From: a virus | Strand: one strand, 5' to 3' | Length of the DNA stretch: 64,000 bases | UHGV virus genome: UHGV-1428848 | Part shown: piece after piece, positions 7,095-61,651 of the stretch | Position numbering within the stretch: the first letter of the stretch is position 1 | How the letters are laid out: each line of letters begins with the position of its first letter | The notes under the pieces: generated by a model | The model's input: the letters and a program-made list of their open reading frames with translations, nothing else | Databases searched by the model: none | What the model was told of the DNA's origin: nothing | Position numbers and translations under genes: made by a program

Positions 7095-9272
7095 TTAGGC
7101 CGCAAGGGCCTTCATAGTTTTAGCGATTTGGGAAACTTCATCATCACTCAAAGAGTTGCGATAACCGATGAAGTCGGAAACAATACGGAATTTCTTGGTA
7201 AACTCAGCAACCATTTTATCACTGTTTTTTGAAGCATTATTTGATAATACATCAAAAAGATTAGTTACCGTCCAGATGTCATGACCGATGGTATCTTTTC
7301 CACCATTAAAATATACACCGCGCAATGAACTAACTATATTAGCGAGTCGTGTATATTCTTCAGAAACTTCATCTGTACTGAAGTACTTCATCATAAAATC
7401 TAGTTCAGGATACTTGATAATTTTATCAATATATCGTTGAGCTGAACTTGAATAACCTACATACTTATCATAATCTACATCATCAAAAGCATCTACATAT
7501 AAATCACGCAAAGCTTCAAAAATACATTGGCACTGACCAAGCTCTTTTACCTTTTTCTGCAAAAGCGGACGAATAACATAAAATTCATTAATGCCAATAA
7601 GATTAGCCATACGAATCAAAATATTCATAGATGGATGACAAAGCGATGTAGTACCATCCATAGAGAAAATATCAGAACGATGCATATACGCTACATAACC
7701 AGTAATTTCATCTGCTTCTGACGTAAGTGTAAATAATTCCTCTTTTTCCCAACGCCCATCTTTAATTTCAAACTTAAATGCTGTAGCAGCTTTAGGACGA
7801 GGAGCTTTACTTTTAACTACCTTTGGAATATAGCTTTTAACTAAAGCTTCAATTTCTGACAAATAATGAATGTTAACTTCATCACTTTCAAACATCGCCA
7901 TAATATCAGGAAGTAAATCAATCTGCGATTCTACTTCTGGATTAATAAACAAAAGGCGTTCGTTATGATGAATATTCAAAGTGTTATTAAATTCACTATC
8001 ATCTAACGCATGTGCTAATCCACGGACAATATTAACACGATTTTTAATATTATCAATAACGATATTAATTTTTGCTGTATTAATACCAAACAGACGATAA
8101 CTTGATGCAACGGCTGAAGTTTCATGGCTTTGCTTAATGCGTTTCAGTCGAGGGTCAAGATTTACTTCATACACAACTCCTGCATTGCATAACTTACTGT
8201 CAGGTTCAAACATGCTCTGCATTTTCTTATATGACAGATTTTTAGTCGTGAATTTGACTGAATTACTAATCATATAATCTCGAGCAGAATACCCCATCTT
8301 CATCAATTCACGATATGTATGACGGGGAGATGTAGATTCTTTAAATCGTTTTACATCTTCATTAAATGCTTGCTCACTGAGTTCTTTAACTCGCTCAATA
8401 ATATTTTTACGAGTACGATCATCAAGTGAAAGAGCCTCGCGAGATGGAGCAATATCAAGTGAACCCATTGGAAACTTAATGTAATTCACTTCATTGCGAA
8501 TGCTTAACCAGTTACGGTCTCTAATAACACCATCGATAGGATAAACAATACCGCCATAGATAGCATATAATCCACCACGATCAGGCCAGTATCTTTCTGG
8601 ATTTACACCATAATAATCATCAAAATCAGGAAAATAATCAATTTCGCGGTCAAGACCATTAATGATAGCCAAATCTTTGAACGGTCGCATGATATAAGAA
8701 ACTTCATAAGCAAAGTTTCTAAAGTCTTTTTCTTCAACTGGAACTACGATTTCAATACCAGTTTTATCATCTGGACCCATTTCTTTTACGAATGTAGGTT
8801 TAATTTGTGGACCATCGCCATCCATGTAAGCTACATAACCACGAATTTCACCTTTATGATACGAAGTAATACTAAATGTATCAGTATAACTAAACGGAGA
8901 TTTAGAACCTAAACCAAATCCGCCAATGAAATCGTTAGATTCAGCCTTAGATGAACTGAAGTATGAATTATACAAACCAGGAGAATTATCATCACCCTGA
9001 ATATCAAAATCACTCATACCCGGACCAAAATCTCGGCAAACAAATCGTGGATCTAAACGTCCAGGAACTTGAATGATAAATTTTTCAGGATTTCCATTGA
9101 GAGCATGGGCATCAATCATGTTGGTAATCAATTCACGAACAACTGCGCGAATTTTGTTTGTATACAAATCAGATGACAGAATTTTAAATACTTTAGGAGA
9201 TGCTGTGATGCTAAATGCTTTTGATTTAGAACCATTGCCAAGAATAGTTTCTTTTTCAGTGGTGATAATCAT
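7095..9272 (-). CDS. rIIA: rIIA protein (GHKL-type ATPase fold)
   Basis: 725 aa, same as T4 rIIA; ATP-binding Bergerat-fold motifs ([18 protein letters not shown]). Confidence 0.85.
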
Positions 9273-40071: not shown

Positions 40072-40306
40072 CCTTAATACAAGATACAGCCATATCTTGT
40101 AATGATTTAGGTGTGTCATTATCTAAAATGTTGAAGTTAAAAGATACAGCCCAGTCAGTGCAGACCGTAACCTTTTTAATACAATTATCTTCAACCTCTA
40201 GCGGTTCAAACCAATATTCAATAATTTCTTTATGACCAATATCATCTTTTACTTCGCATTCAAAATGCTGACTCATCATAACATTTTTAAATTCATCAAA
40301 AGTCAT
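40043..40306 (-). CDS. hypothetical protein (87 aa)
   Basis: ORF track; 46.2 position. Confidence 0.45.
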   Translation of the reverse strand: MTFDEFKNVMMSQHFECEVKDDIGHKEIIEYWFEPLEVEDNCIKKVTVCTDWAVSFNFNILDNDTPKSLQDMAVSCIKDAYCEVFDI

Positions 40307-41322
40307 TGTGTTGCCTCTACATATAACTGATTTGCATATTGAATAAGTGCTTCACGATCAGAATCAGTGATGTCTGGAATTGCATTAATGTATTCTTCCA
40401 TCAACGTCTGAAGAGATTGAACTTCAACTTCTTCACTGTCATCTGACTCGACAGAGTTATCAATCTTTGACACAACTCGTAATGAATGCACAACTTTTTC
40501 TAGTTCAGATTCGAACTTCGTCAGATTTTTGTCTACTTCAGTTACTATAACACGTACTGATAGATTTGTAAAATCTTTATAGTCAATTTTTCCTTTAAAT
40601 GGATAATGAATTCTACGGTGCCAGGTAGTATTGTTTGGAATAAATTCCATTCGTTCTGTTTCTGTATCAAACATCCAGAACCCACGAGAGTCATTCTCGT
40701 CACCTGCAGTTAGTGTCCATGGTGTCCCAATATATCTGACGTTTGCAGCCTCAGAAATAGTATGGAAGTGACCAGACCACACTTCTTTATAAGTCTTAAG
40801 GAAATCGGGTTCAAGACCGTGAGATTTCATTCCTTTATAAAAATAAAATCCATTCAGTTCCCAGTGACCAACACAAAAAGAAGCAGAAGAAGTTTTTATG
40901 TGCTCGAGAATTTCACCAGTATTTTCTTCACACATCCAAGGAATCAAATCAATTAAACATCCGTCAAAATCTACTGTAGTAGGCTTATCATATACTTTAA
41001 CATTAGGATATTTAGCCAAAAGCTCAGTAGAGGCATTTGGATGCATTACATTTTTGTAGTGGAGATCGTGATTTCCTACAATAGTATGTAATGTGATTCC
41101 AGCATCATCAAGCATTTGAACTATTTCACGAGCAAACTCCATAGTTTTATGCGTGATTGCTTTTCGCACATCAAAAATATCACCGTATTGAATCCAGGTA
41201 GTAATTCCATTTTTCTTAGAATATTCTATCGCTTGTTTAATTCCATCAATTTGAATACCGCGAATCCACTCATCATCAGCTTTAACGCCTAAATGCCAAT
41301 CACCCAAGTTTAGTATTTTCAT
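40303..41322 (-). CDS. 47: recombination nuclease subunit (SbcD/Mre11-like phosphoesterase)
   Basis: 339 aa as in T4 gp47; calcineurin-like motifs (DWHLG, GNHD). Confidence 0.9.
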   Translation of the reverse strand: MKILNLGDWHLGVKADDEWIRGIQIDGIKQAIEYSKKNGITTWIQYGDIFDVRKAITHKTMEFAREIVQMLDDAGITLHTIVGNHDLHYKNVMHPNASTELLAKYPNVKVYDKPTTVDFDGCLIDLIPWMCEENTGEILEHIKTSSASFCVGHWELNGFYFYKGMKSHGLEPDFLKTYKEVWSGHFHTISEAANVRYIGTPWTLTAGDENDSRGFWMFDTETERMEFIPNNTTWHRRIHYPFKGKIDYKDFTNLSVRVIVTEVDKNLTKFESELEKVVHSLRVVSKIDNSVESDDSEEVEVQSLQTLMEEYINAIPDITDSDREALIQYANQLYVEATQ

Positions 41323-41923
41323 GGTGTCTTTTCCATCCTAATTTAGCTGCTTTTGAAACCAGTTCTTTAATTTTTCCTTTTGTCCATTCAGGACCAGGAG
41401 GTTCATGACATAACATTTGCTTAACTCCGTTATTATACCATTTTTTACCTTTATTATGTGATGAAGCTTTAAATTTATTTGACCTTCCTTTTACATAACC
41501 TTCTGGAATATAAGGTAAAAATGCAGATTTTCCTGTTAATGGATCATGTGAATGTATATTTCCTTTACAATTATGAGAACCATATAATGGATGATTTTTT
41601 CCTTTAATATCTCTTCCAAATGAACCTTTTGGAGCAGCATATGACATATTAAAGAATAATGGATTTTTAACTGCATCATGCAATCGTTGATAATATAACT
41701 CGCATTTAATAGCTTCTTCACGCGTATCAAATTCAGCTAAAATGCATGAATCAAATAAGTGAGGATTATCTGAAAGCTCTTTATTATAAATTTTCTTATA
41801 CTTTTTAGATAAAACTGAACCATGATATCCAGCTAAATGCCTATCTAAAGACGTAGATCCAATATAAAAAGGAGGAAGTTTATCTCCACTATATATTGTT
41901 AAATAAGTTATATATTTTTTCAT
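41300..41923 (-). CDS. GIY-YIG family homing endonuclease-like protein (207 aa)
   Basis: N-terminal YITYLTIYSGDKLPPFYIGSTS (GIY...YIG), downstream Arg/Glu, basic C-terminal repeats (GKNHPLYGSHN, HNKGKKWYNNG); 3' end overlaps gene 47 start by 23 nt. Confidence 0.55.
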   Translation of the reverse strand: MKKYITYLTIYSGDKLPPFYIGSTSLDRHLAGYHGSVLSKKYKKIYNKELSDNPHLFDSCILAEFDTREEAIKCELYYQRLHDAVKNPLFFNMSYAAPKGSFGRDIKGKNHPLYGSHNCKGNIHSHDPLTGKSAFLPYIPEGYVKGRSNKFKASSHNKGKKWYNNGVKQMLCHEPPGPEWTKGKIKELVSKAAKLGWKRHHENTKLG

Positions 41924-42099: not shown

Positions 42100-43302
42100 T
42101 TATTTTGTAATAATGTCAAACTGTTCTTTAAAGCAGAAGCTTGAATCTTGGTGCTGATACAAAAATTCATATGCTTTTTCTCGCTCACGGTCATAAAGAG
42201 CTCGGTCAGATGACAGTTCTTTAATACGTTCAAATGTTGATTCCATATCATTTTCATCAAACCAAATGATACCGCTATCATGCGAGGTCAAAGGAGTATT
42301 ATCAACACGGAATTTTAAATTTTCGCCAGTAGATTTCCAAAATACCGGAATTGTTCCACATGCACCAAGCTCGAGATGAGTATATTCTAAAGAGCGCTGT
42401 AGATATTTTTTATCCAACTTACTCAACTGATAACCAAAACCGGATTTACTCATACGTTCAAGCATTTCGCTATTTACATAACGGTCAAGAATTTGCGTTG
42501 GCAAATTAGGAGCAATTTTAATTTGGTCTACTTGATGAAGACGATAATACTCGTATGGAATTCCTTTTTCTTTAATAGGAATGAACGCTGGAGAACGTTC
42601 CAGACCTTCCATAATAGTACTTAGTCCTGCAGGTTTAAGATGTTTTTCATGAAAATCAAACATCTGATAAAAACCTTTCCATGTAGTCGTACGACCAATC
42701 CAACGGTTGATATTCATGTTAATTTCAGAAACATCTTTCCAGTAGGTTGATCGAACCTTCGCAATATCCATAGGAGGCTGAAAGTTATATACGGTCGGTG
42801 CTTCTTCAATATCATCAAACAGAGAAACAGTTTCTGGATACCACTCTTTCATCAGAACTTTATTAAAATCACCATTATCAGAATGGCTAAAAATAACATC
42901 AGCTCGACGAACAGTTTCTTCTAATCCCAAATTTCGACGCAAAGAAAGAGAAGAATGGTCATGCTGATAAACTACAACACGAACAGAAGGTTTAATGTTA
43001 TCAATAATTTTTTTATAGTTATTAATAGTGTCTTCTTCAACCGAAGTAGCAGGAACTGAATTGATAATTAGAATATCACAATCATTTACCAGCTTAAGTG
43101 TTTTATCGTATTCTTTTGCCAATAAAACCGGAATTGAAAATGATTTATAATCATGCGCGCAATTACGAGTAAATGATTTATCTTTAGCATAAACCAAAGT
43201 TACTTCATGACCATTTTTAATAAACCAATCACGTTGCTCGAGTGAGAATTTTGTTACACCACAACCTTCAAGACCTCGAGCCATAAAAATACATACTTTC
43301 AT
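42100..43302 (-). CDS. a-gt: DNA alpha-glucosyltransferase
   Basis: 400 aa as in T4 alpha-gt; position between 47 and 55. Confidence 0.7.
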   Translation of the reverse strand: MKVCIFMARGLEGCGVTKFSLEQRDWFIKNGHEVTLVYAKDKSFTRNCAHDYKSFSIPVLLAKEYDKTLKLVNDCDILIINSVPATSVEEDTINNYKKIIDNIKPSVRVVVYQHDHSSLSLRRNLGLEETVRRADVIFSHSDNGDFNKVLMKEWYPETVSLFDDIEEAPTVYNFQPPMDIAKVRSTYWKDVSEINMNINRWIGRTTTWKGFYQMFDFHEKHLKPAGLSTIMEGLERSPAFIPIKEKGIPYEYYRLHQVDQIKIAPNLPTQILDRYVNSEMLERMSKSGFGYQLSKLDKKYLQRSLEYTHLELGACGTIPVFWKSTGENLKFRVDNTPLTSHDSGIIWFDENDMESTFERIKELSSDRALYDREREKAYEFLYQHQDSSFCFKEQFDIITK

Positions 43303-47342: not shown

Positions 47343-47813
47343 TTAATCATGTGTCCACACCCCATCGGTATTTGACCAAAGTCGCTGATTATCTGATCCT
47401 CGCCACAGCTTTTTGGTCGGAAGATTTTTCTCATACTTCCCATCAATAATAACATCAACATATTTAAGCATTTCTAGTTGTTTAATATCTTCAAACTTAT
47501 ATCCTGTCCACAACCAAATGCTTTTACTGGGATAAAGATTTTTTACTGTTTGAACAATGCAATGAATCACGTCTCTGTTATCAGGATAAAGAGGGTCACC
47601 TCCGGTTATAGTTAATCCTTCTATATAATCATTATTCAAACATTCAATTAATTGCTCTAGTGTCTCTCCAGTGAATGGAATACCATTTCTAGCATTCCAT
47701 GTTGATTTATTATAACACCCTTCGCATTTATGCAAACAACCTGTAACGAAAAGAACGACCCTGCATCCAGGGCCATTCACAAAATCACAGGGATAAAATC
47801 TATCGTAATTCAT
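47343..47813 (-). CDS. nrdG: anaerobic ribonucleotide reductase activating protein (radical SAM)
   Basis: 156 aa as in T4 NrdG; Cys cluster CRVVLFVTGCLHKCEGC. Confidence 0.85.
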   Translation of the reverse strand: MNYDRFYPCDFVNGPGCRVVLFVTGCLHKCEGCYNKSTWNARNGIPFTGETLEQLIECLNNDYIEGLTITGGDPLYPDNRDVIHCIVQTVKNLYPSKSIWLWTGYKFEDIKQLEMLKYVDVIIDGKYEKNLPTKKLWRGSDNQRLWSNTDGVWTHD

Positions 47814-49089
47814 TGGTGTTTAACCCTATGCATGATTTCTTTATTTTTACCGAGATTAAATCCGCGCTCGTTCGGATTTCCCAAATAACCACATGTTCTT
47901 CTTATGGTATTCATCTTTTTAGGATCAGTTTCTCCACAAATAGAACAAACAAATCCGTTTTCAGTAGGAGTCATTTCATGGGTGCTTCCGCATGTAAAAC
48001 ATTTATCTACTGGCATATTAACACCAAAATAATCTAAATGCTGTGCAGCATAATCCCATACAGACTCAAGACCTTTTAGGTTATTTTTCATATCAGGAAG
48101 TTCAACATAAGAAATGTGACCGCCTGTCGCAATGAAATGATATGGCGCTTCACGAGAAATCTTTTCAAACGGAGTAATATTTTCTTCTACTGAAACATGG
48201 AAACTATTAGTGTACCAGCCTTTATCAGTAACATCTTTTACACTTCCATATTTTTCAGTATCAAGTTTACAGAAGCGATAACAAAGGTTTTCAGCGGGAG
48301 TAGAATACAAGCTAAAAGCAAAACCGGTTCTTTCAGTCCACTGTTTAAGACGAGCATTCATTTTAGTTAAAATTTCCTGTCCAATATCACGACCGACAAG
48401 AATATTCAATTCGTGAATACCAATGTATCCTAGGGACACTGAACTTCTACCGTTTTTAAATAACTCAATTATGTCGTCATCAGGTTTAAGACGAACCCCG
48501 AATGCACCTTCTTGGTAAAGAATAGGAGCAACAGTCGCTTTAACTCCTTTTAAGGAACTAATTCTACACATCAAAGCTTCAAAACATAAATCCATTCGCT
48601 CATTGAACAATTCGATAAATTTCTGTTCATTGAACTGTGTTCCAATATAAGAATCTAATGCGATACGAGGAAGATTCAGTGTTACAACACCAAGATTATT
48701 ACGTCCATCAAGAATTTCATTACCAGTCGAATCTTTCCATACGCTCAAGAAACTACGGCAACCCATTGGAGAAACAGGAATAGATGAGCCAGTGATAGCT
48801 TTATTGTTCTTAGCCGAAATGATGTCAGGATACATTCTTTTGCTTGCGCACTCTAGAGCAAGCTGTTTAATATCATAGTTCGGATCGTCTTTGTAAAGAT
48901 TAACACCTTCTTCAACGAACATAACAAGCTTAGGGAAAATAGGAGTTATCCCATCACGACCAAGACCTTTAATACGATTTTTCAGAATTGCTTTCTGAAT
49001 CATTCGTTCAGTCCAGTCAGTTCCTGTACCAAATGTTATAGTAACAAAAGGCGTTTGCCCGTTTGAACTGAAAAGTGTATTTACTTCAT
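47810..49089 (-). CDS. nrdD: anaerobic ribonucleotide reductase (class III), exon 2
   Basis: Glycyl-radical RNR C-terminal region; exon 2 begins AT-GAA-GTA (..Y)EVNTLFSSNGQ after intron 3'-terminal G at 49090; joined product is 605 aa. Confidence 0.7.
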
Positions 49090-50134
49090 CATTATATTCA
49101 GCATGAGTCGCAAATTCATGCCCGTTTATATGAAACAACAAAATTTGGATAGTCCATAGATATGCAACGTTCTTTTATAGTGCTAGGATGAAAATTTAGC
49201 GCTTTAGCTGCTTCTATATAAGACGTATACTTAATACCGTCAACAACCACATATTCAGGAACTTTATGAATAGTAGTCTTAATACTCAAAACAAGAGGAT
49301 GAGTTTCGACTTCACTTTCAGTGCAATTTAAATATTCCGCTGCTTTTTTAAAACTTCTAAAAGTTTTATTTTTAAGCTTTATCGATACTTGTTTTTTACT
49401 TTTTCGACTATTGATATTATTTTGCACATGTTCCTTAGATCTTCTGTTTTTAGCATAATATTCAGCCACAGAAGATTTTATATTGTTTTTATGAGATTCG
49501 GATAACACTTTACCCTTATGAGCATCTCTTAATTTTTGAATATGTTCTTCAGTATCCGGATGCTTATAAAACTTTTTACCGCCTATGGATTTATTTAAAC
49601 ATTTTTTGCTATAAAAATATTTACGTATGACCTCTTCTTCATGTTTTAATGCATCTTTATAACTATCAAATGTTTTTAAAATTATCCATTTAGTAGGTGT
49701 ATCAGTTTTTAAGCGTTCATTTATATACTTAGATGACGTTGTGTAAGTTTTCCAGTTTGTGGGCTTGTTTTTAATTGTTCTAAATTTTTTATAACCGATA
49801 TAAATGTCGCCATTAGAAAACTTAACTAAGTATGTAAATGTGTCTTTATCTTTTATTTTAGTACAACGTCTTTTTATCCATTTCATTGTTTCACCTCGTA
49901 TTCATAAGATAATCTTATTTATACAAGATGACTGCTGCATGTCGCCATGCAGATTAGACTATATCTTCATCTTTCGATGCCGGCCGTTTCGAATAGCATT
50001 AGCTTCTATTCTACACCGCTACATTCATCACGGTTAGTCGTTAGGCATTTAGTTCAAAAGAACATTTAGCACGGGATTGTCTACTAGAGAGGTTCCCCGT
50101 TTAGACCGGTTTTACATGAGCCTGAATTAAATTA
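49090..50134 (-). mobile_element. group I self-splicing intron in nrdD (sunY-type), 1045 nt
   Basis: Starts UAAUUUAAUUCAGG after exon U; contains conserved core AACGGGGAACCUCUCUAGUAGACAAUCCCGUGCUAAAU (as in the T4 td intron); ends ...AAUG; endonuclease ORF occupies its 3' part. Confidence 0.75.
49116..49886 (-). CDS. intron-encoded GIY-YIG homing endonuclease (I-TevII-like)
   Basis: 256 aa entirely inside the intron; N-terminal GIY-YIG-like FTYLVKFSNGDIYIGY; C-terminal helix-turn-helix DNA-binding motif GIKYTSYIEAAKALNFHPSTIKERC. Confidence 0.75.
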   Translation of the reverse strand: MKWIKRRCTKIKDKDTFTYLVKFSNGDIYIGYKKFRTIKNKPTNWKTYTTSSKYINERLKTDTPTKWIILKTFDSYKDALKHEEEVIRKYFYSKKCLNKSIGGKKFYKHPDTEEHIQKLRDAHKGKVLSESHKNNIKSSVAEYYAKNRRSKEHVQNNINSRKSKKQVSIKLKNKTFRSFKKAAEYLNCTESEVETHPLVLSIKTTIHKVPEYVVVDGIKYTSYIEAAKALNFHPSTIKERCISMDYPNFVVSYKRA

Positions 50135-50672
50135 ACTCATAAGCTTGGAATGCATCGTATACATCTTTTTCTGTTTTAGATTGAGCATAATTTAACGCAT
50201 CAGCGATTTGCCATTTTTCTGCGTCCTCAATATGTTTTGCATAGGTGCGTTTAACATAAGGAGAAAGTACTTTATCTACATTAGCAAAAGTCGTTCCGCC
50301 GTATTGATGGGAAGCAACCTGTGCAGTAATTTGTGCCATAATTGCAGTAGCAACTCCAATTGATTTAGGAGTTTCAATCTGTGCATTACCAAGCTTAAAT
50401 CCGTTCTCAAGCATTCCTTTTAAATCTACTAAACAGCAATTAGTAAATGGAAGAGCAGGGGAATAATCAATATCATGGAAATGGATAATTCCGCTTTCAT
50501 GCGCTTTCATAATAAAAGACGGGACCATATTTTTGGCAATGTGTTTAGACACAATACCAGCCATAAGGTCCCGTTGAGTTGGAAAAACACGAGAATCTTT
50601 ATTAGCATTCTCGTTTAAAAGGTCTTTATTAGTTTTATGAATCAATCCTTCAATTTCTTTTTCAATTGTCAT
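50135..50672 (-). CDS. nrdD: anaerobic ribonucleotide reductase (class III), exon 1
   Basis: Exon ends ...GCT TAT GAG T (..QAYE + first nt of Tyr codon); the track ORF continues 2 codons into the intron before a stop. Confidence 0.7.
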
Positions 50673-57996: not shown

Positions 57997-58311
57997 CTAA
58001 AAGAAACTTCTTTCACAATTTTTTCCACTGAACCATGCGCTTACCGCTTTCTTAGTCTCAGGAGCAGTGTTATCCATAAACCATTCAAAAGCAGCCTTTT
58101 TATGATTCTGGAGGGCTTCTCGGGCTTTAATCTGCTCACGGTCTATTAACACTAATATATGAGCCTTTCTTGTCACCAAGGGCTTCTTATGATTCTTGGA
58201 GTATTCCCAGTCATTTGTCCAACGCATTGTCGTTGCGAACTGATGAACCGCGTCTTTAATTTTAGTTTCGTAAATTTCACGAGCTTTTGAGTATAACATC
58301 TTTACCTCCAT
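57997..58311 (-). CDS. hypothetical protein (104 aa)
   Basis: ORF track. Confidence 0.45.
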   Translation of the reverse strand: MEVKMLYSKAREIYETKIKDAVHQFATTMRWTNDWEYSKNHKKPLVTRKAHILVLIDREQIKAREALQNHKKAAFEWFMDNTAPETKKAVSAWFSGKNCERSFF

Positions 58312-58380
58312 TTACCAGTTTAATTCTAGTCATCTTTTTAATGGCAGTCCATATAATCTATTTCTGAACTGCCTTTTGTC

Positions 58381-59100
58381 TTAGGATTCTTCTAAATGTC
58401 TTTTCTGAAAAGTTGATACCATACTACGATACGGTTCATTTGGATACCCGTGTTTTATAGCTTCCTTTGTAAATTTTCTCCATCCATATTTAGTTTCTTT
58501 CCAAAGCTCGAATAATTCATCTTCATATTGCCATATAGTTAAATGAGAACGCTTTGCAGCTTTAATTCCATTAATATGCTTTTCTTTTACTACAGGATTG
58601 CTTAGTTTCTTTTTAATAATATTACTAACTTTTCTAACAAAAACTGGGTCCTTATATCGTTGCGAAGTTTTTATTGAAGTGTTTAATTTAGCTTCCGGCG
58701 TGGATGTGACCTCTTTCATCTTTTTCTTCATATGCTGTATATGATTAGGATTTTTCCATAAATTTATAGAATGCTTTTTGCATTTTATCCTAGTTTCATC
58801 TGCAACCTTTCCTCCTTCACCCCCGTATGACAGGTTAACACAGTTTTTTCCATATTTCAATTTACCTGCCATGATATATAATATTTCAGCTTGTACCATT
58901 TTATCATAATTATCAAAAACTTCTAAAACCGTTTTTGATAATATGTGGTCATTTGACACTTTTACACGTTCTATATAATTTCCACTACCAACATACGAAT
59001 CATTGATGTTATTAGTTATATGTCGACCATAATAGTATTTCTTAATACCTGTCTTTAAATTTAATATTTCAGTTTTATAGATAGTAAAATATTTTTTCAT
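58381..59100 (-). CDS. GIY-YIG family homing endonuclease-like protein (239 aa)
   Basis: N-terminal YFTIYKTEILNLKTGIKKYYYGRH...YVGSG; Lys-rich C-terminal half typical of HEG DNA-binding domains; ATG overlaps AAA+ gene stop. Confidence 0.55.
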   Translation of the reverse strand: MKKYFTIYKTEILNLKTGIKKYYYGRHITNNINDSYVGSGNYIERVKVSNDHILSKTVLEVFDNYDKMVQAEILYIMAGKLKYGKNCVNLSYGGEGGKVADETRIKCKKHSINLWKNPNHIQHMKKKMKEVTSTPEAKLNTSIKTSQRYKDPVFVRKVSNIIKKKLSNPVVKEKHINGIKAAKRSHLTIWQYEDELFELWKETKYGWRKFTKEAIKHGYPNEPYRSMVSTFQKRHLEES

Positions 59101-60077
59101 TTTAATAATACCGTTTCAGCGATTTCTTCCCAACCGTTTTTGTCGGTCATAATAAAGTCAGCAAGATAAAGAGCAGTACGCAGTGAAACATTGCGTAAAC
59201 GATTAACATTGACTTTCATCCATGATAATGCTTTATAAGTTTCTTCATCAGAAAGACCGCGCTTTTGCATCATGTCAGTTGAAAGAATAACATCTTCAAC
59301 CCTGACCATAATTTCTTCATTAGTGTGAACACCCAAATCCAAATAAACTGAGCGGGACACTAATGCTTGTAAATGTGGAGCAAGTTTAGTACCACGGTCT
59401 AATTCGCGGTCAATGTCAACGTTTGTGATAAAAACAATAGTTCCTTTAAATTCAAACTCACGCTCAATGCCTTTTTCTTCTAAGTAAGAAGATGCGGTGC
59501 TCCAGCAGACTTTACGGGTCTCTCCAGTGTCCAGAGCAGCTTTCAGAAGATTAAGAATGTCCATATCAGAGAAAACATCCACATCATCAATCAAAAGGAC
59601 AGAATTCTCTTCACGATTATTCCAAAGCTGTTCATAAAGACCGATACCGGAGATTTTACCGTTAATGCTTTTATATTCAATGTATCCAATATCATTTGCT
59701 TTATTTAAAGCTTTATCTAAAGAATACGTTTTACCAATACCCGCCGCACCAGAGATAATTAATGAACGAATATTTCCATTAATAATACCATTCGTCATCA
59801 TTCCCATAACATTAAATCTTTTATTAATGCGGGTTTTCATATCTTCATACGATTCTTTAACTTCTTCAACTTTTACACCATCATATGAAATGTCTGATTT
59901 GTAAACCCAAACACCGCGACGTTTACCGTCAATTTCAACAAAAACTTTACCATCTCCTTGTGCATCTACCGGAGCATTATCAGGGAACCACTCACCTAAG
60001 AGTTCAAAAGTTCCAGAGATTTCTTTACCGAAGTAGATACCCTTATTAATAGTTACAGTTTTCATTTTATTCTCCAA
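59097..60077 (-). CDS. AAA+ ATPase (326 aa)
   Basis: Walker A GAAGIGKT, Walker B LLIDDVD, sensor FITN; N-terminal ~100-aa extra domain. Confidence 0.6.
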   Translation of the reverse strand: MENKMKTVTINKGIYFGKEISGTFELLGEWFPDNAPVDAQGDGKVFVEIDGKRRGVWVYKSDISYDGVKVEEVKESYEDMKTRINKRFNVMGMMTNGIINGNIRSLIISGAAGIGKTYSLDKALNKANDIGYIEYKSINGKISGIGLYEQLWNNREENSVLLIDDVDVFSDMDILNLLKAALDTGETRKVCWSTASSYLEEKGIEREFEFKGTIVFITNVDIDRELDRGTKLAPHLQALVSRSVYLDLGVHTNEEIMVRVEDVILSTDMMQKRGLSDEETYKALSWMKVNVNRLRNVSLRTALYLADFIMTDKNGWEEIAETVLLK

Positions 60078-60098
60078 ATCCGTATCAGTTAATAGTTG

Positions 60099-60129
60099 TA
60101 TAGTACCATAAAGCTTTATGCTTGTAAAC
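60099..60129 (-). promoter_or_regulatory. T4-type early promoter
   Basis: Minus strand GTTTACAAGCATAAAGCTTTATGGTACTATACAAC. Confidence 0.55.
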
Positions 60130-60158
60130 CGTTTTGTGAAAAATTTTTGAAATAAAAA

Positions 60159-60178
60159 AGGGAGCCCGAAGGCTCCCT
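60159..60178 (-). terminator. intrinsic terminator after nucleotidyltransferase gene
   Basis: GGGAGCC-TTCG-GGCTCCC then TTTTTTATTTC on minus strand. Confidence 0.5.
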
Positions 60179-60179
60179 A

Positions 60180-61193
60180 TCATTTATAATAACTTCGGTG
60201 GTTTTCAAGATAGACCTTCTCAAGGAAGTCATCCCAGAAACTCATGTCTACTTTTTGCTGCATACCGTTCTTAGAAGCTTCAGTAGATGCTGCTTCTACT
60301 TGATCGACCACATCTTCCAAAAACTCTTGAACTGTTTTAAATGGATGCTTACCCAACTTCACGTCGAGAATAAATGGAGCATCTTGGAGTGGATAAATCA
60401 AGTCGCCAGTTTTGTAAATTTCCAATAGTTGGAGTCCACCACGACAAGCATGGCTCAGAGCTTTCCAGTCAATACCTTCATTAGCTTCGGCTTTACGAGC
60501 ACGTTCACCATATTCAGCATCTAATTTGTTCAGTGACTGCTTAAGCTCAATAAGAGAAAGCGTTGTCTGATATTTACGACCCAATACAGTGTAGAACGTT
60601 TGTGGACCTGTTTTCTCATGATTATGGAACACCCATTCACAGAATTCGTTTTCTGGAAGACGATGCTTAATATCTTCAACTTTAGTGCGACGCTGCTTAA
60701 TAGAACCATCTTCTTGGTAATCAACCCATTGCTCAGGGATTTGATTAACTACTTTCAATACATCGCGTAATGCAGCCAAACGAGAACCCTTGACACCATA
60801 TTTAGAAGCTTGCTTGCGAACATATCCTAAATAGGATTTCATGTTAGTCGTATAAAAACGAGAACGGTTGTCTTGAATAAACTTCCACACGTCAGGCAAA
60901 TCAGATTTAACCACTAGTTCAGGTGGAGTGTGAAGCATATCCAATGCTACAGTTTCACCATCTGCTGCTAATTTAAAGAAATACTTAAGACTATACAATT
61001 CGTGGTCAATATCATCTTTAGTGTTTTTAGATGATGTGTTGTTGGTATTTTTACTCATATGCTCTTTAACATTTCCGATAAGAATATCACGAGCAGGAGG
61101 AACAAAGATTTCTTTAAAATCTACATCAGATTCTGGAGTAGAAGTTCCATAAAGATGGCTACCAAAATAGCTTTTCATTACTGTTTTCATCAT
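60180..61193 (-). CDS. Pol-beta superfamily nucleotidyltransferase (337 aa) with helical C-terminal domain
   Basis: N-terminal GSHLYGTSTPESDVDF (GS-x9-DhD minimal NTase motif) plus downstream DDIDHE acidic site. Confidence 0.55.
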   Translation of the reverse strand: MMKTVMKSYFGSHLYGTSTPESDVDFKEIFVPPARDILIGNVKEHMSKNTNNTSSKNTKDDIDHELYSLKYFFKLAADGETVALDMLHTPPELVVKSDLPDVWKFIQDNRSRFYTTNMKSYLGYVRKQASKYGVKGSRLAALRDVLKVVNQIPEQWVDYQEDGSIKQRRTKVEDIKHRLPENEFCEWVFHNHEKTGPQTFYTVLGRKYQTTLSLIELKQSLNKLDAEYGERARKAEANEGIDWKALSHACRGGLQLLEIYKTGDLIYPLQDAPFILDVKLGKHPFKTVQEFLEDVVDQVEAASTEASKNGMQQKVDMSFWDDFLEKVYLENHRSYYK

Positions 61194-61651
61194 TCAGCCT
61201 TATATTCAATAACAGGACATACTTTAGCTTTACGCGCTTTTAAAAATTCAACGATAACCGATTTCTTGGGTTGAATAGGAGGTAAACCTTTATACGCCCT
61301 ATCAATATTTTCTACGTGTAAAGCATAATCCTTTTTCCATTTATAATCTTTATATTTTTCATGCAAATGTGCAGGAATAACAAATGAACCGATAATAAGT
61401 AAAACAACCAAAAGCGCAAGTATAAATGCTGATGGAAGAAGAGTCCATAAACTACCGAAAATAAGCCAACGTTGTAGGCTTTCTGCACAAATAATTGTTA
61501 GCCCTACGAGTATAGCACATCCAAAAATAGAAACGAAAAATGTAGGAATGGCAATAGACCAAAAATATGCGCATAGTGTCTTAGGTCGTTGCCATTCATC
61601 GTTAAACAATTTGAATAATTTATAGTGCCAAGAGTTTTCATTAATAATCAT
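61190..61651 (-). CDS. membrane protein (153 aa), 3-4 TM helices
   Basis: Stop overlaps nucleotidyltransferase ATG (ATGA). Confidence 0.5.
   Translation of the reverse strand: MIINENSWHYKLFKLFNDEWQRPKTLCAYFWSIAIPTFFVSIFGCAILVGLTIICAESLQRWLIFGSLWTLLPSAFILALLVVLLIIGSFVIPAHLHEKYKDYKWKKDYALHVENIDRAYKGLPPIQPKKSVIVEFLKARKAKVCPVIEYKAE

Follow-up and report, generated by a model that had tools for sequence, protein, structure and literature searches.

The locus between nrdC.10 and nrdC.9 in the window, by which is meant the whole 64,000-nucleotide stretch of virus DNA that was analysed, raises the question of what its 239-codon open reading frame (ORF) encodes, how it came to lie between two phage genes, and whether it still moves. 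The data described below were considered together, and the ORF is very probably a free-standing homing endonuclease gene of the Seg type, with a GIY-YIG head and a basic helical tail, residing at the nrdC.10/nrdC.9 junction.

Identification of the gene

The earlier note, which was made from the sequence alone, had placed a 239-aa ORF with the N terminus MKKYFTIYKTEILNLKTGIKKYYYGRHITNNINDSYVGSG at positions 58381-59100 and had described it as starting on the stop codon of the upstream gene. Both statements were confirmed. The ORF listing contains this ORF with an ATG start and a protein beginning MKKYFTIYKTEILNLKTGIKKYYYGRHITNNINDSYVGSG, and the strand, left unstated before, is minus. The residues A59100, T59099, G59098 and A59097 of the minus strand form an ATGA in which the ATG of the endonuclease overlaps the TGA stop of nrdC.10. 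The window is from a T-even phage (Tequatrovirus); the 4-kb region around the ORF matched 824 records, nearly all Tequatrovirus, and the best phage matches were RB14, RB32 and RB33 at 97.9%. The predicted protein is 100% identical to the copies in RB14, Ac3 and pSe_SNUABM_01. The features of the locus are collected in Table 1.

Table 1. Features of the nrdC.10/nrdC.9 locus, in coordinates of the window
Feature	Coordinates	Strand	Remarks
Putative seg-like GIY-YIG homing endonuclease gene, free-standing	58381..59100	minus	239 aa + stop; corresponds to RB32ORF093c
N-terminal GIY-YIG catalytic domain, residues 1-96	58813..59100	minus	Y8, Y23-Y24-G25, E72, N89
Five tandem ~17-aa units, residues 100-184	58549..58803	minus	presumed DNA-binding array
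C-terminal three-helix module, residues 187-239	58384..58542	minus	possible helix-turn-helix
Recoded last six nrdC.10 codons + stop	59097..59117	minus	GAA ACG GTA TTA TTA AAA TGA (ETVLLK*)
Occupied-allele cassette, ~731 bp	58385..59115	minus	replaces ~35 bp: nrdC.10 tail + spacer ATTCATAAGAGGCCTT
Backbone hairpin GGCAGTTCAG...GGACTGCC	58343..58373	minus	just downstream of cassette; invariant in 18/18 loci
nrdC.10, P-loop NTPase-like, function unassigned	59097..60077	minus	upstream, co-oriented; presumed homing target at 3' end
nrdC.9 (DUF7203), downstream flank	57997..58311	minus	
Sigma-70/T4-early-like promoter, TTTACA-17-TACTAT with TG	60100..60128	minus	consensus match only, upstream of nrdC.10
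Intrinsic-terminator-like hairpin after nrdC.11	60159..60178	minus	8-bp stem, 6 GC pairs, then T run

The gene order in RB32 is nrdC.8, nrdC.9, RB32ORF093c, nrdC.10, nrdC.11, and RB32ORF093c has been labelled since 2006 as a 'putative site-specific intron-like DNA endonuclease; similar to seg'. Both the annotation and the kind of element were known before, and there is little in it that is new in kind, free-standing Seg endonucleases being textbook T4 biology. Seg-like GIY-YIG genes were tallied in RB14, RB32, RB51, T6 and RB3 by Petrov et al. 2010 (PMC2993671, Table 5); the table counts the genes without itemising them, and RB32ORF093c is presumably part of this tally. A literature search on RB32ORF093c, nrdC.9 and nrdC.10 together with homing endonuclease found no paper naming or studying the gene. 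A review of T4 mobile elements lists no endonuclease at the nrdC.10/nrdC.9 site, which follows from T4 being without the gene (PMC2988022).

That the ORF is more than a chance frame was deduced from its 1,419 related representatives at E<=1e-3 in an exhaustive HMMER search, from the near-identical copies in 67 records, and from the mainly synonymous variation among copies described below. The family became visible only through the exhaustive search, as a word-indexed protein search gave just 2 clusters.

Catalytic domain and C-terminal tail

Membership of the product in the GIY-YIG superfamily, which the earlier note had proposed from the motifs, is supported by conserved residues and by profile and translated searches. 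PHROG 314 ('homing endonuclease') matched the query at E 1.8e-30, and tblastn from the query gave SegH of T6 (2e-5) and SegB of T4 (1e-5) at 27-31% identity and also reached genes annotated as segA and segD. In the alignment of 78 relatives, Y8, G25, E72 and N89 were present in 78/78 and Y23 in 77/78; Y36, G38 and G40 were also invariant, and H27, D34 and S39 were nearly so. Profile alignment placed Y8, Y23-x-G25, E72 and N89 on Y6, Y17-V-G19, E75 and N90 of I-TevI (1LN0), the catalytic domain of which was the only PDB match of the profile, and a weak one (E=0.3). The canonical GIY-YIG arginine (R27 of I-TevI) is not clearly conserved. R45, located on helix 41-48, matches the clade consensus 'r' in a column where 31 of the 78 sequences have R and 12 have K, and its equivalence to R27 is uncertain.

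In the AF2 model (pLDDT 95.8) the catalytic domain has strands at residues 4-14, 20-29 and 52-62 and helices at 41-48 and 65-86. These correspond to a three-stranded antiparallel sheet with flanking helices (a beta-beta-alpha-beta-alpha core), and the GIY and YIG motifs, T-I-Y8 and Y23-Y24-G25, lie on the first two strands. The fold prediction, which had been named earlier as a check on the assignment, therefore gave the GIY-YIG core, but Foldseek found no significant structural match for either the full model or the separately predicted domain model. The silence of Foldseek is a discrepancy between methods.

Nothing was obtained for the query from Pfam, even at E<=10, from NCBIfam, or from phmmer against the PDB. 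Among the 78 relatives, 31 matched SegE_GIY-YIG (PF19835) and 22 matched GIY-YIG (PF01541), both counted at E<=0.01, and NUMOD3 was matched by 28, whereas Pfam gave no NUMOD match in the query. The missing Pfam match reflects the limited sensitivity of the models for a divergent member and is not evidence against the fold. It is useful for annotation to know that this divergent clade of Seg proteins goes unrecognised by the curated models of Pfam and NCBIfam.

The Lys-rich character ascribed to the C-terminal half was borne out, residues 97-186 containing 22% Lys with a pI of 10.5. Each of the ~17-aa units consists of (N/T/D)P followed by a basic helix, and the helices of the tail were found in the AF2 model at residues 101-116, 118-132, 135-150, 152-166 and 169-185. 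This five-unit basic helical tail is presumed from the model to bind DNA. Residues 133-231 align to residues 131-246 of T4 MobD (E 8e-06), and the shared stretch includes the motif W-x-x-x-D/E-L-x-x-L-W ... G-Y-P.

Occupied and empty alleles

Presence of the gene at the identical position in all relatives, which the earlier note had set against its own reading, was not what was found. The DNA of the gene was found in 67 phage records, all 97.6-100% identical, and an uninterrupted empty site was found in ~434 Tequatrovirus records, the counts including GenBank/RefSeq duplicates and laboratory derivatives. Carriers amount to ~13% of Tequatrovirus records, or about one in eight. The empty site was identified with a 401-bp probe across the T4 nrdC.9/nrdC.10 junction, where 94 bp separate the two genes in T4; in occupied records the match to the probe is interrupted at its position 186. 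Both nrdC.10 and nrdC.9 are complete in occupied and empty alleles, and the ORF is free-standing and lies in no intron or intein.

Some copies have decayed. The RB3 copy is frameshifted by expansion of a G5 run to G12 and the AR1 copy by a 1-nt deletion, while the G157lw copy, at 719 nt, was split in two by tblastn and has an apparent frameshift. In eight intact copies, 19 variable codons were synonymous only versus 8 that changed an amino acid. By rough arithmetic this is a several-fold deficit of replacements, from which it was concluded that the ORF is under purifying selection.

The junction and its counterparts in other lineages

Junction alignments were made for 10 occupied and 8 empty loci. 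Homology between the two alleles stops at ...GAAGAAATYGCTGA and restarts at CTAAGAC, and the junctions were identical in all 10 occupied loci. The recoded nrdC.10 tail was present in 10/10 occupied loci (with one substitution in BF15) and in 0/8 empty loci. The typical empty tail, seen in T2, teqhad, fPS-90, PhiZZ23 and ACG-C40, is GAG GTT ACT CTT CTG AAA TAA (EVTLLK*) followed by ATTCATAAGAGGCCTT; ECML-134 and PE37 have ACG GTT... (TVTLLK*), and in T4 an extra G causes a frameshift to TGYSSEINS*. The occupied tail differs from the typical empty tail at 12 of 21 nt and encodes nearly the same peptide (ETVLLK for EVTLLK), and the ATG of the endonuclease is embedded in its AAATGA. The 3' end of the gene showed ~39% identity to the replaced sequence over 36 nt by hand count, which was taken as the chance level for AT-rich DNA. 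The backbone hairpin is present in occupied and empty alleles alike and is therefore outside the mobile unit. Since the cassette replaces the last nrdC.10 codons with a recoded tail, the 3' end of nrdC.10 is likely to be the target of the endonuclease.

Related genes were found at the same site in more distant phages. Klebsiella phage Merci (Jiaodavirus) encodes a 46% identical protein 8 nt after the stop of a 74%-identical NrdC.10 orthologue, and Serratia phage 92A1 has a ~45% identical decayed copy, with an in-frame stop, directly after nrdC.10. A metagenomic T4-like contig has a 44% identical copy between nrdC.10 (77% identical) and nrdC.9; this copy, the start of which had been shortened by the gene caller, shares with the window both the ...IAETVLLK* tail and the ATGA overlap. 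Jiaodavirus is likewise polymorphic, with ~7 occupied versus ~140 empty records (~5% carriers). The tail of the empty Jiaodavirus JD18 is GAA GTA ACA ATG CTG AAA TAA with a hairpin spacer, and that of the occupied Merci is GAA GTA ACC CAA CTC CGT GGA TAA. In Tequatrovirus and Jiaodavirus alike the break in homology falls within the last nrdC.10 codons, and the sequence ...GCTGArGTwAC...CTGAAATAA shared by the empty alleles of both genera is lost when the site is occupied. One endonuclease lineage has thus stayed with the same orthologous site in at least two genera, even as its members diverged to 44-46% identity; relatives of ~30% identity occupy other sites, for example next to tk. The suggestion that the flanking gene is a general insertion hotspot was not upheld, as the 3' end of nrdC.10 appears instead to be the dedicated homing site of one endonuclease lineage.

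A divergent T4-like lineage also has the gene coupled to nrdC.10 and the ETVLLK tail, which indicates that the arrangement is old, and it could accordingly be argued that the gene is ancestral and has been lost repeatedly by deletion rather than gained by homing. This was judged highly improbable. The sampled empty alleles share a junction with a different, intact tail and spacer (the T4 frameshift and small variants aside), a sequence that would not be restored by merely deleting the cassette. Moreover, the carriers do not form a clade for the flanking genes (18 loci), and the gene is compositionally foreign, its GC content being 29.6% versus 36-40% in the flanks.

Diversity of the flanks

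For nrdC.10 the nucleotide diversity (pi) was 0.021 within the occupied group, 0.017 within the empty group and 0.019 between the two, and the corresponding values for the 500 bp downstream were 0.033, 0.033 and 0.031. At least three nrdC.9 haplotypes were each common to occupied and empty phages. No presence-linked SNPs or co-conversion tracts were detected in nrdC.10 and the 500 bp downstream of the 10 occupied and 8 empty loci outside the recoded tail, and no long co-conversion tract survives around the gene. Cleavage-site polymorphism in the flanking genes, which the earlier note had proposed to look for, was therefore not spread through the flanks but was concentrated in the last six nrdC.10 codons. 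The presence of the gene on many backgrounds is what its mobility, or frequent recombination in its surroundings, would be expected to produce.

General recombination frequent enough to erase linkage to flanking SNPs would also suit an inactive or no-longer-homing relic that is carried passively and spread by ordinary recombination between co-infecting phages. The broken copies in RB3, AR1 and 92A1 and the lack of conservation of the canonical arginine point in the same direction, and a precedent is T4 SegD, a seg gene without self-mobilisation according to the title of a reference listed in PMC10448857. A relic was nevertheless deemed unlikely because the remaining catalytic residues are intact and invariant, the variable codons of the intact copies are mostly synonymous, and the gene (pi 0.013) is less diverse than its flanks (0.021 and 0.033). 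Furthermore, persistence at the same site down to 44-46% identity would scarcely be expected unless homing or selection had continued.

Neighbouring genes and expression

The upstream gene nrdC.10 had been described as an AAA+ ATPase gene. It does carry the Walker A motif GAAGIGKT, but all of its AAA-type matches were below the cut-offs: 23.5 bits for AAA_14 (27), 21.2 for AAA_22 (27) and 16.5 for AAA (21.2) in Pfam, and in NCBIfam Hda only, at 14.6 bits (194.8). The description P-loop NTPase-like is safer. In the annotation of relatives, nrdC.10 starts at an ATG four codons downstream.

The promoter match upstream of nrdC.10 is the probable source of a transcript covering nrdC.10 and the endonuclease gene, and the equivalent site in fPS-90 is annotated as a 'predicted early promoter'. 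The terminator-like hairpin, which is an annotated terminator in fPS-90, sets nrdC.11 apart from this unit. The T4 late motif TATAAATA was not found near the endonuclease gene, and a consensus scan for a promoter of its own gave only generic sigma-70-like matches inside the ORF. No Shine-Dalgarno sequence precedes the ATG, and no stable RNA structure was predicted over the start codon (z = -0.29). From the ATGA overlap and the missing Shine-Dalgarno sequence we infer translational coupling; co-transcription with nrdC.10 followed by termination-reinitiation at the ATGA would be the simplest reading.

Other endonuclease ORFs in the window

The earlier note had inferred active endonuclease traffic from two unrelated free-standing GIY-YIG genes and an intron-borne one. 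Two further ORFs were indeed matched when the window was scanned with the profile from the 78 relatives, one free-standing and one resembling I-TevII, but the term unrelated does not hold, as both are distant relatives of the nrdC.10-linked gene and all three belong to one superfamily. The I-TevII-like ORF, at 49116-49886, matches SegE_GIY-YIG and NUMOD1 and has a TATAAATA motif just upstream; it lies between ORFs of 181 and 443 aa, which, from the T4 gene order, are presumably the two halves of nrdD. The free-standing ORF, at 41300-41923, scored 21.4 bits against GIY-YIG, just under the cut-off. It lies between ORFs of 400 and 339 aa, presumably alpha-gt and gene 47 by their size, and is just upstream of the presumed gene 47.

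Proposed homing cycle and possible benefit

According to the mechanism that we propose, the endonuclease would be transcribed together with nrdC.10 from the early-type promoter and ribosomes finishing nrdC.10 would reinitiate at the ATGA overlap, giving weak translation of the endonuclease. During mixed infection the enzyme would recognise the nrdC.10 3' end in a genome lacking the gene and make a double-strand break there. The target is predicted to lie around ...GCTGAGGTTACTCTTCTGAAATAA and to include the spacer (in all, ~20 nt at the end of nrdC.10 and the 16-nt spacer of the empty alleles), with the cut predicted near ...CTTCTGAAATAA. The cassette would then be copied in by recombinational repair from the carrier genome, and the carrier would itself be immune, its target having been overwritten by the near-synonymous recoded tail. 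The recoded tail could, however, be foreign sequence from a donor lineage with a native ETVLLK rather than an adaptation for immunity, and the two readings are compatible. The predictions added by this analysis are a specific target, a six-codon immunity determinant, and natural donor/recipient pairs (T6 or RB32 versus T2 or T4).

Homing might also be only part of the story, the nuclease being kept because the phage benefits through exclusion of markers of competitors or through break-induced recombination and segmental amplification of accessory or anti-defence genes nearby. In T6, SegB causes anti-defence loci, gp49.1-nrdC.1 among them, to be amplified, and whether other T-even endonucleases act likewise was left open in the same work (PMC13096335). 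A benefit would be in keeping with the age of the nrdC.10 association and ATGA arrangement and with the purifying selection on the ORF. The gp49.1-nrdC.1 locus is presumably a few kb from the endonuclease gene, going by the T4 gene order. Retention for such a benefit was considered quite improbable, as the low proportions of carriers in Tequatrovirus and Jiaodavirus show the gene to be clearly dispensable and nothing in the sequence tells a benefit from plain homing.

A related and speculative proposal, to which we would give little credence, is that this Seg lineage is a long-term, obligate resident coupled to nrdC.10, the breaks of which may, by analogy with SegB, stimulate recombination or amplification in the nrdC region and so confer a conditional benefit. 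Long-term residence is suggested by the conservation of the ATGA overlap and ETVLLK tail between lineages that are 44% identical. If this were true, the nrdC accessory region with anti-defence genes such as gp49.2 would be affected, and the endonuclease would not be a pure parasite.

Comparison with known systems

Homing of a free-standing Seg-type gene into the nrdC.10/nrdC.9 junction, the reading preferred here, has its closest counterparts in SegB (T4) and SegH (T6/U5), which resemble the window gene over the catalytic domain and part of the tail and are likewise free-standing between phage genes and sporadic among T-even phages. They differ in site, which is the tRNA cluster or nrdG/nrdD rather than nrdC.10/nrdC.9, and in being characterised enzymes, whereas the window gene is known from sequence and is unmatched by curated Pfam models. 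I-TevI is intron-encoded and has a zinc-finger linker followed by a helix-turn-helix, in place of which the window protein has the five-unit helical array and the three-helix module. The first beta hairpin of the window protein is also longer, with 15 residues between the two Tyr compared with 11 in I-TevI.

SegF and SegG of T4 cleave at a distance of hundreds of bp from where they are inserted, and long co-conversion tracts accompany their transfer. The window gene is unlike them in that no presence-linked polymorphism was found beyond the last six nrdC.10 codons, which suggests that cleavage is at the junction itself or else that an earlier linkage was later lost. In genetic logic they agree with the window gene: SegF and SegG are free-standing genes beside the gene that they target, and they spread in mixed infection through repair of the break, by 'intronless homing' and with marker exclusion (PMC2988022). 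MobD of T4, encoded by a free-standing gene two genes away in that phage, differs from the window protein in its catalytic domain (HNH versus GIY-YIG) and in its insertion site, while its C-terminal half is homologous. From this alignment, the MobD-like tail appears to be one more case of the well-known exchange of DNA-binding modules among families of nucleases.

Variable positions around nrdC.10

The position held in T4 by the HNH endonuclease gene mobD is filled in the window by a 153-aa ORF, whose counterpart RB32ORF096c is annotated as "replaces mobD" and whose sequence looks like that of a membrane protein. This difference is the second polymorphism at an endonuclease site within 2 kb. 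The nrdC.10/nrdC.11 spacer (60078-60179), compared between the window and relatives (loci L005-L011), is another variable cargo slot. It holds a 486-nt ModB-like/T2_95 gene in T2 and ACG-C40, a DUF4031 gene and a 150-nt ORF in ACG-C40, ECML-134, and fPS-90, and a 201-nt ORF in PhiZZ23, and the early promoter is duplicated with every insert. None of these inserts is present in the window, in T4, or in any occupied locus examined.

At the other end of nrdC.10, alignment of the junction alleles (A3) showed an extra G in T4 (locus L002, about 7344-7373), which reads GCTACGGGTTAC versus GCTACGGTTAC or GCTGAGGTTAC in the other empty alleles. The final codons are thereby frameshifted to TGYSSEINS*; most relatives end in (E/T)VTLLK*. 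The extra G could have arisen by mutation in the laboratory strain, or it could be a variant with an altered predicted endonuclease target. The hairpin between the endonuclease cassette and nrdC.9 was invariant in all 18 loci compared, both occupied and empty. Since no T run follows on its 3' side, it is not an obvious terminator; a role in RNA processing or stability is possible.

Features of the window discussed in this part
Feature	Coordinates	Strand	Description
Hairpin	58343-58373	-	GGCAGTTCAG-loop-GGACTGCC; between cassette and nrdC.9
I-TevII-like ORF	49116-49886	-	256 aa; SegE_GIY-YIG and NUMOD1
T4 late-promoter motif	49916-49923	-	TATAAATA; just upstream of I-TevII-like ORF
Second free-standing GIY-YIG ORF	41300-41923	-	207 aa; Seg-profile match, Pfam GIY-YIG match slightly below cut-off
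153-aa ORF	61190-61651	-	At T4 mobD position; corresponds to RB32ORF096c

Other GIY-YIG genes in the window

The I-TevII-like ORF is flanked by ORFs of 181 aa (50127-50672) and 443 aa (47810-49141), presumably the two halves of nrdD. The window contains only three T4 late-promoter motifs, one of which precedes this ORF. The second free-standing GIY-YIG ORF (29.5% GC) scored 21.4 bits against Pfam GIY-YIG, slightly below the cut-off of 22.6, and gave an E value of 6.8e-07 with the Seg profile, built from 78 relatives of the nrdC.10-linked endonuclease. It lies between ORFs of 400 aa (42100-43302) and 339 aa (40303-41322), which, judged by size only, are taken to be alpha-gt and gene 47, respectively, and it shares 23 nt with the start of the 339-aa ORF. 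On the T4 map, this region carries 47.1 and mobB.

Errors in public records

Mislabelled records include the T6 RefSeq entry (NC_054907), L008 (a comparison locus), and many others. The label "thioredoxin" is widespread on nrdC.x genes, and in the T6 entry nrdC.9 is labelled "HNH homing endonuclease" and nrdC.8 "tail sheath protein." In AR1 and RB68 the nrdC.10-linked endonuclease gene is named "segE," but the T4 gene of that name is located elsewhere (inh/uvsW). In a metagenomic T4-like contig, the gene caller placed the endonuclease start 129 nt too late.

Relationship to MobD

Several database matches to the nrdC.10-linked endonuclease were confined to residues 172-234, and its last ~50 residues form a module that is found in other database proteins, either on its own or repeated. 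Its presumed DNA-binding half (residues 133-239; 58384-58702, minus strand) shares homology with the C-terminal half of T4 MobD (E value, 8e-06), which belongs to the HNH rather than the GIY-YIG family.
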